Shown piece by piece: positions 1 through 12,579 of a stretch of DNA of 64,000 nucleotides. The position numbers were made by a program, and so were the translations under genes. A model generated the notes under the pieces. That model was not told the DNA's origin and made no database searches. It saw nothing but the letters and a program-made list of their open reading frames with translations. Source of the stretch: Eledone cirrhosa (lineage: Eukaryota); the NCBI GenBank assembly GCA_964016885.1, contig OZ024740.1, forward strand, positions 395,126,001 to 395,190,000, read 5' to 3'. Numbering within the stretch: position 1 is the first letter of the stretch; each line of letters opens with the position of its first letter.

Positions 1-272
1 ACGTTCGCTGGCAAAGAACGGGAAAAAAATAATGTAATACGTCATTAATAGGTGCGGTGAAAAACAATTATGCGCAAAGACAGAACCACGTTTATGGTAT
101 AAAAGAAGTCGTAGACTAATGTTCTCTTAGGTGGTTCATAGAGACGTTGTCTGGCAATGAACGGAAAAAACGAAGATAATACGTCATATGTGGAGCGTGG
201 AGAACAATTGCATGCAAAGACAAACTCACGTAAATGGTATAGCTGAAGTCGTAGACTAAAATTCTCACTAGG
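1..272. repeat. Two diverged tandem units of ~140-143 bp, running off the left edge of the window
   Basis: ACGTT..CTGGCAA.GAACGG starts at 1 and 144; GAAGTCGTAGACTAA at 105 and 245; TAATACGTCAT and GCAAAGACA occur in both units. Confidence 0.75.
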
Positions 273-324
273 AAACCGAATGAATCTCTGCTTCAGAGTT
301 AAGAATAAAGTAAATATAATACAA

Positions 325-371
325 ATCGAGCCCTCTTTGGATTTTAGTCTTCAAATTTATTATTATTACTA
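325..371. repeat. Conserved element terminus abutting (TA)n
   Basis: ATCGAGCCCTCTTTGGATTTTAGTCTTCAAATTTATTATTATTACTA is identical at 19433-19479; 33 bp of it is inverted at 1842-1874; each copy touches a (TA)n tract. Confidence 0.85.
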
Positions 372-462
372 TATATGTATATATATATGTATATATATAT
401 GTATATATATATGTATATATATATGTATATATATATGTATATATATATATGTATATATATAT
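372..462. repeat. (TA)n microsatellite with periodic TG interruptions
   Basis: Direct reading. Confidence 0.95.
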
Positions 463-648
463 ATAATAGGATATGTGTTCCTTCACGCATAAGGCGCTAA
501 GGGACGCATGTATTGTCCAACCAAATGCCAATGTGGTTCAATGGCAGGTTAATAAATTAACGAGCCAGAACATATATAAACAAGGTTTAGCAAATAATGA
601 AAAAGTTTCAAAATAAATTTTAAAAAATTGACTTTACCTACTATAGTT

Positions 649-731
649 ACCTTTACCGATCGGTTTCGAATCCCAAAAATAAACGGAGACCATACGGCCT
701 TCGTTGCAAAGAAAGATTCTCGTCAGAAGGT
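649..731 (-). ncRNA. Type I hammerhead ribozyme, copy 1
   Basis: Minus strand: ACCTT-CTGACGA-GAATCTT...GGGATTC-GAAA-CCGATCGG-TA-AAGGT. Core CUGANGA/GAAA/UH is intact; stem I ACCTT/AAGGT; stem II GAATCTT/GGGATTC; palindromic stem III ACCGATCGGT; GUA cleavage predicted between 654 and 653. Confidence 0.85.
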
Positions 732-1133
732 TCTTTTCATTCGAAGAATATAAAATTCTTGAATTTAAATTACGAACTAGCGCTATCCAAAACTGTTCCT
801 GAGATGAGAGTGAATGAAGTGGAATCAATTTTTTCAAGGGCCGAAGTAAAGATAGAGGCAGAGGGAGGTAGGTCAAACCGGCCGCAACTATCACTAGCAG
901 CAGTCGGAACAACCCAATTTGTCTCTCAACAATAGCGGAGAGTAGTAATAATAGGATATGTGTTCCTTCACGCATAAGGCGCTAAGGGACGCATGTATTG
1001 TCCAACCAAATGCCAATGTGGTTCAATGGCAGGTTAATAAATTAACGAGCCAGAACATATATAAACAAGGTTTAGCAAATAATGAAAAAGTTTCAAAATA
1101 AATTTTAAAAAATTGACTTTACCTACTATAGTT

Positions 1134-1216
1134 ACCTTTACCGATCGGTTTCGAATCCCAAAAATAAACGGAGACCATACGGCCTTCGTTGCAAAGAAAG
1201 ATTCTCGTCAGAAGGT
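1134..1216 (-). ncRNA. Type I hammerhead ribozyme, copy 2
   Basis: Same sequence as copy 1, offset +485. Confidence 0.85.
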
Positions 1217-1622
1217 TCTTTTCATTCGAAGAATATAAAATTCTTGAATTTAAATTACGAACTAGCGCTATCCAAAACTGTTCCTGAGATGAGAGTGAAT
1301 GAAGTGGAATCAATTTTTTCAAGGGCCGAAGTAAAGATAGAGGCAGAGGGAGGTAGGTCAAACCGGCCGCAACTATCACTAGCAGCAGTCGGAACAACCC
1401 AATTTGTCTCTCAACAATAGCGGAGAGTAGTAATAATAGGATATGTGTTCCTTCACGCATAAGGCGCTAAGGGACGCATGTATTGTCCAACCAAATGCCA
1501 ATGTGGTTCAATGGCAGGTTAATAAATTAACGAGCCAGAACATATATAAACAAGGTTTAGCAAATAATGAAAAAGTTTCAAAATAAATTTTAAAAAATTG
1601 ACTTTACCTACTATAGTTACCT

Positions 1623-1775
1623 ATATATATATGTATATATATATGTGTATATATATATGTATATATATGTGTATATATATATGTATATATATATATATAT
1701 GTATATATATATTTATATATATATATATGTATATATATATGTATATATATATGTATATATATATATATGTATATA

Positions 1776-1807
<32 letters not shown>

Positions 1808-1841
1808 CATATATATATACATATATATATATATACATATA
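1623..1841. repeat. Compound (TA)n microsatellite
   Basis: Direct reading. Confidence 0.95.
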
Positions 1842-1929
1842 TAGTAATAATAATAAATTTGAAGACTAAAATCCTGGATCCTCAGAACCGTCCAGTCGAG
1901 AGATTCCCACACCATTATTCTTCTCTTCT

Positions 1930-12090: not shown

Positions 12091-12579
12091 GAAGTAAAAA
12101 TAATTGTTTCTACTTTTAGCACAAGGCCAGCAATTATCTCAGTGCATTACTGGTACTTTATTTTATTGACCCCTTAAGGAAGAAAGGCAAAGTTAACCTC
12201 GACGGGATTTGAACTCAGACCGTAAAGGGACGTAACTCTGCTGGAAAGCATGGTGTCCGACCCTCTACCGATACTGACAATTCACTGCGAAGTAAAAATA
12301 ATTGTTTCTACTTTCGGCACAAGGCCAGCAATTACCCAGTACATTACTGGTACTTTATTTTATCGACCCCATAAGGATGAAAGGCAAAGTTAACCTCGGC
12401 GGGATTTGAACTCAGACCATAAAGGGACGTAACTGTTTGCTGCAAAGCATGGCGTCCGACCCTCTACCAATACTGCCAATCCACCAAAAATAATTGTTTC
12501 TACTTTTGGCACAAGGCCAGCGCCAGTGCATTACTGGTACTTTATTTTATGACTCCGTAAGGATGAAAGGCAAAGTTAA
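12091..12579 (-). mobile_element. Three tandem copies (third truncated) of a tRNA-derived SINE with a Meta-domain-like core
   Basis: ~198-bp period; minus strand has A-box-like TGGCAGTATTGG, B-box GAGTTCAAATCC, then GCCTTTCATCCTTA.GGGGTCGATAAAATAAAGTACCAG. Confidence 0.8.

Follow-up and report, generated by a model that had tools for sequence, protein, structure and literature searches.

We find that the 485-bp tandem repeat near the start of the window (the whole 64,000-nt stretch of DNA analysed) belongs to a family of hundreds of arrays inserted in (TA)n. The fixed ends of this family are the RNA 3' ends, opposite to the end that an earlier note on this DNA had flagged as coinciding with a predicted ribozyme cleavage site. 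Judged by its sequence features, the element can be classified as a non-LTR retrozyme with Penelope-like insertion anatomy. The array probably represents one insertion into (TA)n, likely made by the reverse transcriptase of a Penelope-like element (PLE) and likely from RNA with its cut site intact, and its 5' end could about equally be a truncation or a run-off end. Competing origins have been proposed for animal retrozyme arrays, and a young family with hundreds of readable insertions allows them to be tested from junctions only. A single boundary that happens to lie close to a cut site does not prove that the ribozyme is active; the value of the locus lies in family-wide insertion anatomy, which bears on how retrozyme arrays form.

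The array and its parts lie in the window as follows.

463..1622, minus strand: tandem array of the 485-bp hammerhead repeat (non-LTR retrozyme), 2.4 identical copies, from its period and genome matches
649..731, minus strand: type I hammerhead copy 1, predicted cut 654/653, from motif, fold and conservation, with stem I at 731-727/653-649, core CUGACGA at 726-720, a long stem II, GAAA and palindromic stem III at 664-655
1134..1216, minus strand: type I hammerhead copy 2, predicted cut 1139/1138, from motif, fold and conservation
1621..1623, minus strand: RNA 5' junction of the insertion, unit position 2-3, the feature raised in the earlier note
460..466, minus strand: RNA 3' end (unit position ~191), the other fixed end of the family besides ~82 and a putative internal priming site, from genome-wide junctions
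1542..1550, minus strand: unit position ~82, recurring at 572 and 1057; internal here, but in other copies the main fixed 3' end, from genome-wide junctions
370..465, no strand: left (TA)n target tract, from repeat content
1622..1843, no strand: right (TA)n target tract, from repeat content

The 485-bp period is exact across the array, whose RNA sense is the minus strand, and it is first broken where 1138 (T) is set against 1623 (A). We number the unit from the first base 3' of the predicted cut. The unit length, the two predicted cuts and the start of a third product at 1623, all as reported earlier, were borne out. The proposal that the 5' end lies at the self-cleavage site holds only as to proximity: the end falls at unit position 2 or 3, 1-2 nt short of the predicted third cut and not on it, the choice between the two being ambiguous because T at 1622 may be part of the (TA)n tract. 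Both flanks are (TA)n, and the right tract would conceal a target-site duplication and leaves the junction uncertain by 1 nt. The unit has stop codons in all six frames and no long ORF, and its GC content is 38%.

Other repeats surround the array. The same ~30-bp sequence stands on both outer flanks (335-369 and 1844-1880), facing the (TA)n tracts, and these are apparently the 3' ends of another (TA)n-targeting family. A 140-bp period occupies 1-266, and by eye 1900-2545 resembles a LINE 3' end with a short repeated tail. Farther along lie 2.5 tandem copies of a 197-bp unit (12091-12579), which we take to resemble an octopus SINE, and a 33-kb satellite (24957-57792) with a 28-bp unit in ~1170 copies.

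Each complete unit encodes a candidate type I hammerhead ribozyme. Its minus-strand order is CCUU-CUGACGA-stem II-GAAA-CCGAUCGG-UA^AAGG, with the triplet GUA preceding the predicted cut; all core letters are canonical, stems I-III are present, and the structure is open at stem I. The core CUGACGA starts at 726 and 1211. Stem III is the palindrome ACCGAUCGGU, which is computed to pair between two units at -16.6 kcal/mol, a dimer arrangement described for metazoan type I hammerheads in the published account (PMC4209133). The hammerhead fold is kept across subfamilies, in support of the earlier identification of a retro-inserted hammerhead repeat. Differences in the core affect 13 of 1056 cells (1.2%) over 96 distinct copies, as compared with 370 of 7584 (4.9%) outside the ribozyme. 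In 10 hand-picked copies, 3 of 16 pairs in stems I and II have changed on both sides (score 0.251 vs 0.150 shuffled), a count of pairs that 50 of 500 shuffles also reach and that comes from related rows. We regard these paired changes as supporting, not decisive. Unconstrained folding gives a minimum-energy structure other than the hammerhead (z -0.82), with the hammerhead fold 2.1 kcal/mol higher, and the Rfam hammerhead models returned no match to the unit at gathering score or E<=10, only (AT)n artefacts. The long loop II may account for the absent Rfam match. Together, conservation and covariation argue for selection on the ribozyme more than the boundary does.

A search of the 3-Gb genome with the unit gave 1874 candidate places; the 40 that were scored contained 211 matches. 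Genome-wide, position 82 of the unit has 337 exact junctions to (TA)n and position 191 has 173, each with a control of 0. For statistics on 5' ends, loci were chosen by their 3' junction alone, to avoid bias. Set A comprises 92 loci, corresponding to 93 of the first 100 listed position-82 junctions after L136 was dropped as a duplicate of L135, and set C adds 40 further loci from the first 100 listed position-191 junctions; nearly all loci of both sets come from the two largest contigs. Set B, the 28 best genome matches, was selected for carrying the full unit and was excluded from these statistics. The sampled arms number 202 (132 in inversions and 70 direct), with a median length of 349 nt, and 14 of them are longer than two units.

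The insertions are Penelope-like in having 5' truncation, an inverted partner copy, a tail at one end and a microsatellite target. In head-to-head inversions, an 82 end is paired with a 191 end in 62 of 66 cases (40/42 in set A and 22/24 in set C). The family also has the characters of metazoan non-LTR retrozymes: at least two tandem units each with a complete hammerhead, a non-coding sequence, GC below 50% and dispersed copies. A further pattern is seen at the inverted loci of sets A and B, where the 5' ends of arms starting at 191 cluster near site 82. Of the 15 such arms longer than 485 nt, seven have this end at 30-110 (P=0.007, a pattern spotted post hoc), and the first priming site may block a second enzyme.

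In R2 elements the ribozyme cut defines the 5' end. Here, the 5' ends of the 202 arms are scattered round the whole unit. Of 235 passes that reached the cut site (position 4), 228 (97%) read through it; the seven that stopped within 483..3 compare with 3.2 expected (P=0.043), a level also reached in 4.3% of all 6-nt windows. The earlier note had read the boundary, one of 485 possible positions, as independent evidence of cleavage in vivo, a reading that the scatter of ends and the 228 passes that continue do not support. The rarity was overstated as well: the prior chance is 0.6-1.0% for ±1 to ±2 nt, and 1.4% for positions 483..3 (six in all) given the observed rate of stopping. Nor is a cleaved linear RNA supported as the usual template. 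When the histogram of ends proposed there as a check was drawn, it largely displayed the scatter named as refuting, together with a small excess near the cut.

This copy could have been reverse-transcribed to the 5'-OH end of a self-cleaved RNA (a part-cleaved multimer or template-jumped monomers), so that its boundary would record cleavage. We consider this somewhat unlikely. Besides the seven stops within 483..3, it draws on the refined breakpoints, in which position 1 is covered exactly by 3 of 202 arms (local mean 0.98, P=0.08); all three (L134, L150, L277) are among the 132 inverted arms, where 0.63 is the local expectation (P=0.03), and L257 starts at position 2, whereas none of the 70 direct ends covers position 1. 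Among 2-nt TA/AT sites, the cut site takes 7 of the 15 hand-counted ends over 6 sites (P=0.007). A tolerant-anchor genome search found 17 loci (control 1, unmatched), of which 10 start at 484, 2 at 485, 1 at position 1 and 3 at position 2 (the window's array included), with 1 ambiguous; the same junction as that of the window's array occurs at two other loci in this search. The starts at positions 1 and 2 speak for a run-off end, but 12 of the 17 loci continue past the cut for 1-2 letters that match the unit on its 5' side and are absent from the cleaved 3' product. These letters (A, TA) could partly derive from the (TA)n flank. Also against a run-off end, other sites gather as many ends or more: at least 10 at the TATA of positions 9-13, 5-6 at 444-448 and 4 at 437-439. 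In strict-anchor genome junction searches, read by hand, unit positions 483-485 hold 7 loci besides the window's array, set against a background of ~0.5-0.7 direct ends per position (16 loci at 397-430 and ~22 at 437-469). The cut-site excess of 5' ends is thus probably small, about 2-fold and mostly just past the cut, and at best about 55% of the stops at 483..3, roughly half, are excess. As evidence of cutting, the boundary is thus weak, and the odds that the 5' end of the window's array is an ordinary truncation or a run-off end are about even. The observation that opened this work was accurate but is mostly uninformative.

The units within arrays say more about the template. Across 55 arrays, median unit divergence is 0.2% within arrays against 3.4% between them, and 0.6% to the nearest other array. 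Template jumps are expected to leave indels at the joins, as in R2-type elements. The repeated jumps that the earlier note had allowed for find no trace here: the 327 junction crossings show no indel excess, with indel bases at 483..3 amounting to 0.31% against 0.51% unit-wide. We conclude that the repeat was likely copied from uncut or circular RNA. In 29 loci with at least three units, the private alleles, meaning those found at no other sampled locus, comprise 4 that are fixed, 31 that are single and 8 that are partial. The four fixed alleles span all 5-11 units of their arrays, and in L041 and L056 they span both arms. The longest arm (4911 bp) has no internal substitution. No A-to-I editing signature was seen, with A>G in 6 of 61 within-array singletons. 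One array (L035:4022-6082) has a ~125-nt stretch across the cut with three alleles (460, 61, 98), all of them known as fixed alleles of other arrays. A template switch or gene conversion may have produced it, in either case not bounded by the cut.

These patterns bear on two rival accounts. In the first, the template was an uncleaved linear multimer transcribed from an existing array, cleavage plays no part, and both arms of an inversion arise by twin priming of a single long transcript. This accounts for the read-through and the clean junctions, and the clustering of the 5' ends of long 191 arms near 82 (the post hoc 7 of 15 given above) fits it too. Published observations point the same way: the account of an anole PLE describes normal in vitro insertion by ribozyme mutants and an absence of RNA-seq reads with either end at the cut (PMC11167929), and 8 of 9 Xenopus retrozyme dimers are described as uncleaved in vitro (10.64898/2026.07.22.740005). 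For new alleles to become fixed throughout an array, however, this account requires a bottleneck of a single unit, and it leaves the conservation and covariation of the hammerhead unexplained, and we think it unlikely. In the second, insertions of 1-2 units were later expanded by slippage or unequal crossover, as has been proposed for Xenopus retrozymes, such that array length would say nothing about the template. Partial private alleles, carried by only some units, occur in L140, L269, L288, L045 and L051 and point to later local duplication or mixed templates; in L140, L269 and L288 they are shared in part by neighboring units, as expansion would have it, and the shortness of the median arm and the rarity of arms above two units also agree with it. 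Set against this are the 31 single and 4 fixed private alleles to 8 partial ones, and the longest arrays being the least diverged internally. Arm length declines as within-arm divergence rises (rho -0.43, n=59; -0.30, P=0.08 in the 34 arms of sets A and C), with the limit that long arrays come mostly from the best-match sample, which favors young copies. We judge later expansion to be improbable.

The account we prefer, with somewhat better than even confidence, is rolling-circle reverse transcription of a ribozyme-made circular RNA. Core conservation, compensatory changes and, in some arrays, private mutations present in every unit support a working ribozyme and a circular template better than the boundary does. 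Tandem transcripts would self-cleave, probably as dimers via the palindromic stem III, to 485-nt monomers, and these would be ligated into circles. A PLE endonuclease would nick (TA)n, and the reverse transcriptase would prime internally at unit 82 or 191, in inversions using one site per nicked strand, as the pairing of 82 with 191 ends suggests. It would then roll round the circle up to about ten times, giving near-uniform units, and stop at random, often at TA/AT microhomology, with scattered 5' ends as the outcome. The 2-fold excess would follow from a slight pause at the junction or immediately beyond it. In a stronger version, to which we give somewhat less than even odds, the arrays would be a direct genomic record of such copying by a dimeric PLE enzyme that nicks both (TA)n strands and may also link two different retrozyme RNAs within a single insertion (L149). 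Several points weigh against rolling-circle copying. Four of the 17 tolerant-anchor loci start at positions 1-2, as run-off predicts, and the cut-site excess is real only at borderline. The uncleaved linear multimer of a uniform source array yields the same read-through, and fixed private alleles would also outlast local expansion of a short insertion. Eight private alleles are confined to some units, and no autonomous PLE with the unit's sequence was found among ~70 PLE-bearing loci. Rolling-circle copying and its rivals are not mutually exclusive.

The enzyme that would mobilize the unit was sought among the PLE-like elements in which this genome is rich (10,597 GIY-YIG candidates and 38,066 others). 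The ~70 loci searched for homology to the unit, a small part of these candidates, gave no match, and a search of 30 GIY-YIG loci with a profile of the tail gave none either. No ORF with reverse transcriptase and GIY-YIG endonuclease occurs in the unit, and no long ORF is joined to the arrays in L031-L150. One very abundant young PLE-like family, with 38,066 candidates (L171-L200; L221:1846-5496, minus strand), has a 1217-aa frame with YVDD and a GIY-YIG-like end. This frame has no Pfam match; its ORF is flanked on each side by a hammerhead-like core, and the family has a tail of 44 nt and (TA)n targets. It was rejected as a partner, having no DNA in common with the unit. Both the unit (window 720-700, minus strand) and L221:5707 have CUGACGA, 11 nt and then UGCAACGAA, a likeness that may be chance because the older unit subfamilies lack it.

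Other hammerhead-like repeats share the targets or anatomy of this family. In one case (L149:380-1080, the same as L201), a unit arm and one from a different hammerhead-like repeat meet head-to-head, and both terminate in (TA)n, which may reflect two RNAs copied in one event or neighboring insertions fused later. A second abundant non-coding family (L202-L220; 2095 candidates) has GAAA with a palindromic stem III, inversions, (TA)n targets and two 3' ends ~100 nt apart. A third hammerhead repeat (L297-L321, with its unit in L313; 2015 candidates) has a 657-bp period and two 3' ends. It is ~60% alike to unit positions 77-230 (best E 2e-6; one short alignment did no better than the best of 200 shuffles), and its sequence after the cut resembles that of the 485-bp unit. 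A hammerhead adjoining one GIY-YIG locus proved to be part of this separate 657-bp repeat and was set aside.

Circular-template reverse transcription was proposed for retrozymes in 2014 (PMC4209133) and again in 2020 (PMC7229834), and a later proposal derives retrozyme arrays from a PLE terminal repeat amplified locally (10.64898/2026.07.22.740005), as these accounts present them. We found no junction mapping of retrozyme insertion ends in the open-access main texts, whose supplements could hold end maps.

Compared with known systems, the family is like R2 elements with HDV-like ribozymes, as described in PMC6765202, in placing a self-cleaving ribozyme in a target-primed retroelement, the pattern that the earlier note had assumed; unlike in R2, the cut site does not set the usual 5' end. 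The likeness to PLEs, as far as the published accounts describe them (PMC4209133, PMC8557442, PMC11167929), extends to the type I hammerhead with its short palindromic stem III, to insertion in microsatellites with 5' truncation and head-to-head inversion, and to two internal 3' ends, the longer one on one side. Inverted PLE copies with a one-sided 30-40-bp tail are described in PMC8557442, and for the anole PLE the account gives two internal reverse transcription start sites, extension of both strands and a ribozyme activity that is dispensable for insertion in vitro (PMC11167929). Unlike the PLEs so described, the unit has no ORF, a tail of ~109 nt where theirs is 30-40 nt, as many as ten perfect copies of the unit and, across the ~70 PLE-bearing loci, no sequence link to a PLE of this genome. 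Set beside metazoan non-LTR retrozymes as reported, the unit is longer (485 bp against 200-350 nt; PMC7229834, 10.64898/2026.07.22.740005), and has a long loop II insert, (TA)n targeting and two fixed internal 3' ends. Circular monomers are shown for other animal retrozymes in the 2020 account (PMC7229834). With those elements, as these publications describe them (Cervera and de la Pena 2020, PMC7229834; Li et al. 2026, 10.64898/2026.07.22.740005), it shares a non-coding tandem repeat in which every unit has a single type I hammerhead, a GC content below 50%, the lack of a visible LTR, dispersed copies and the presence of PLEs in the same genome.
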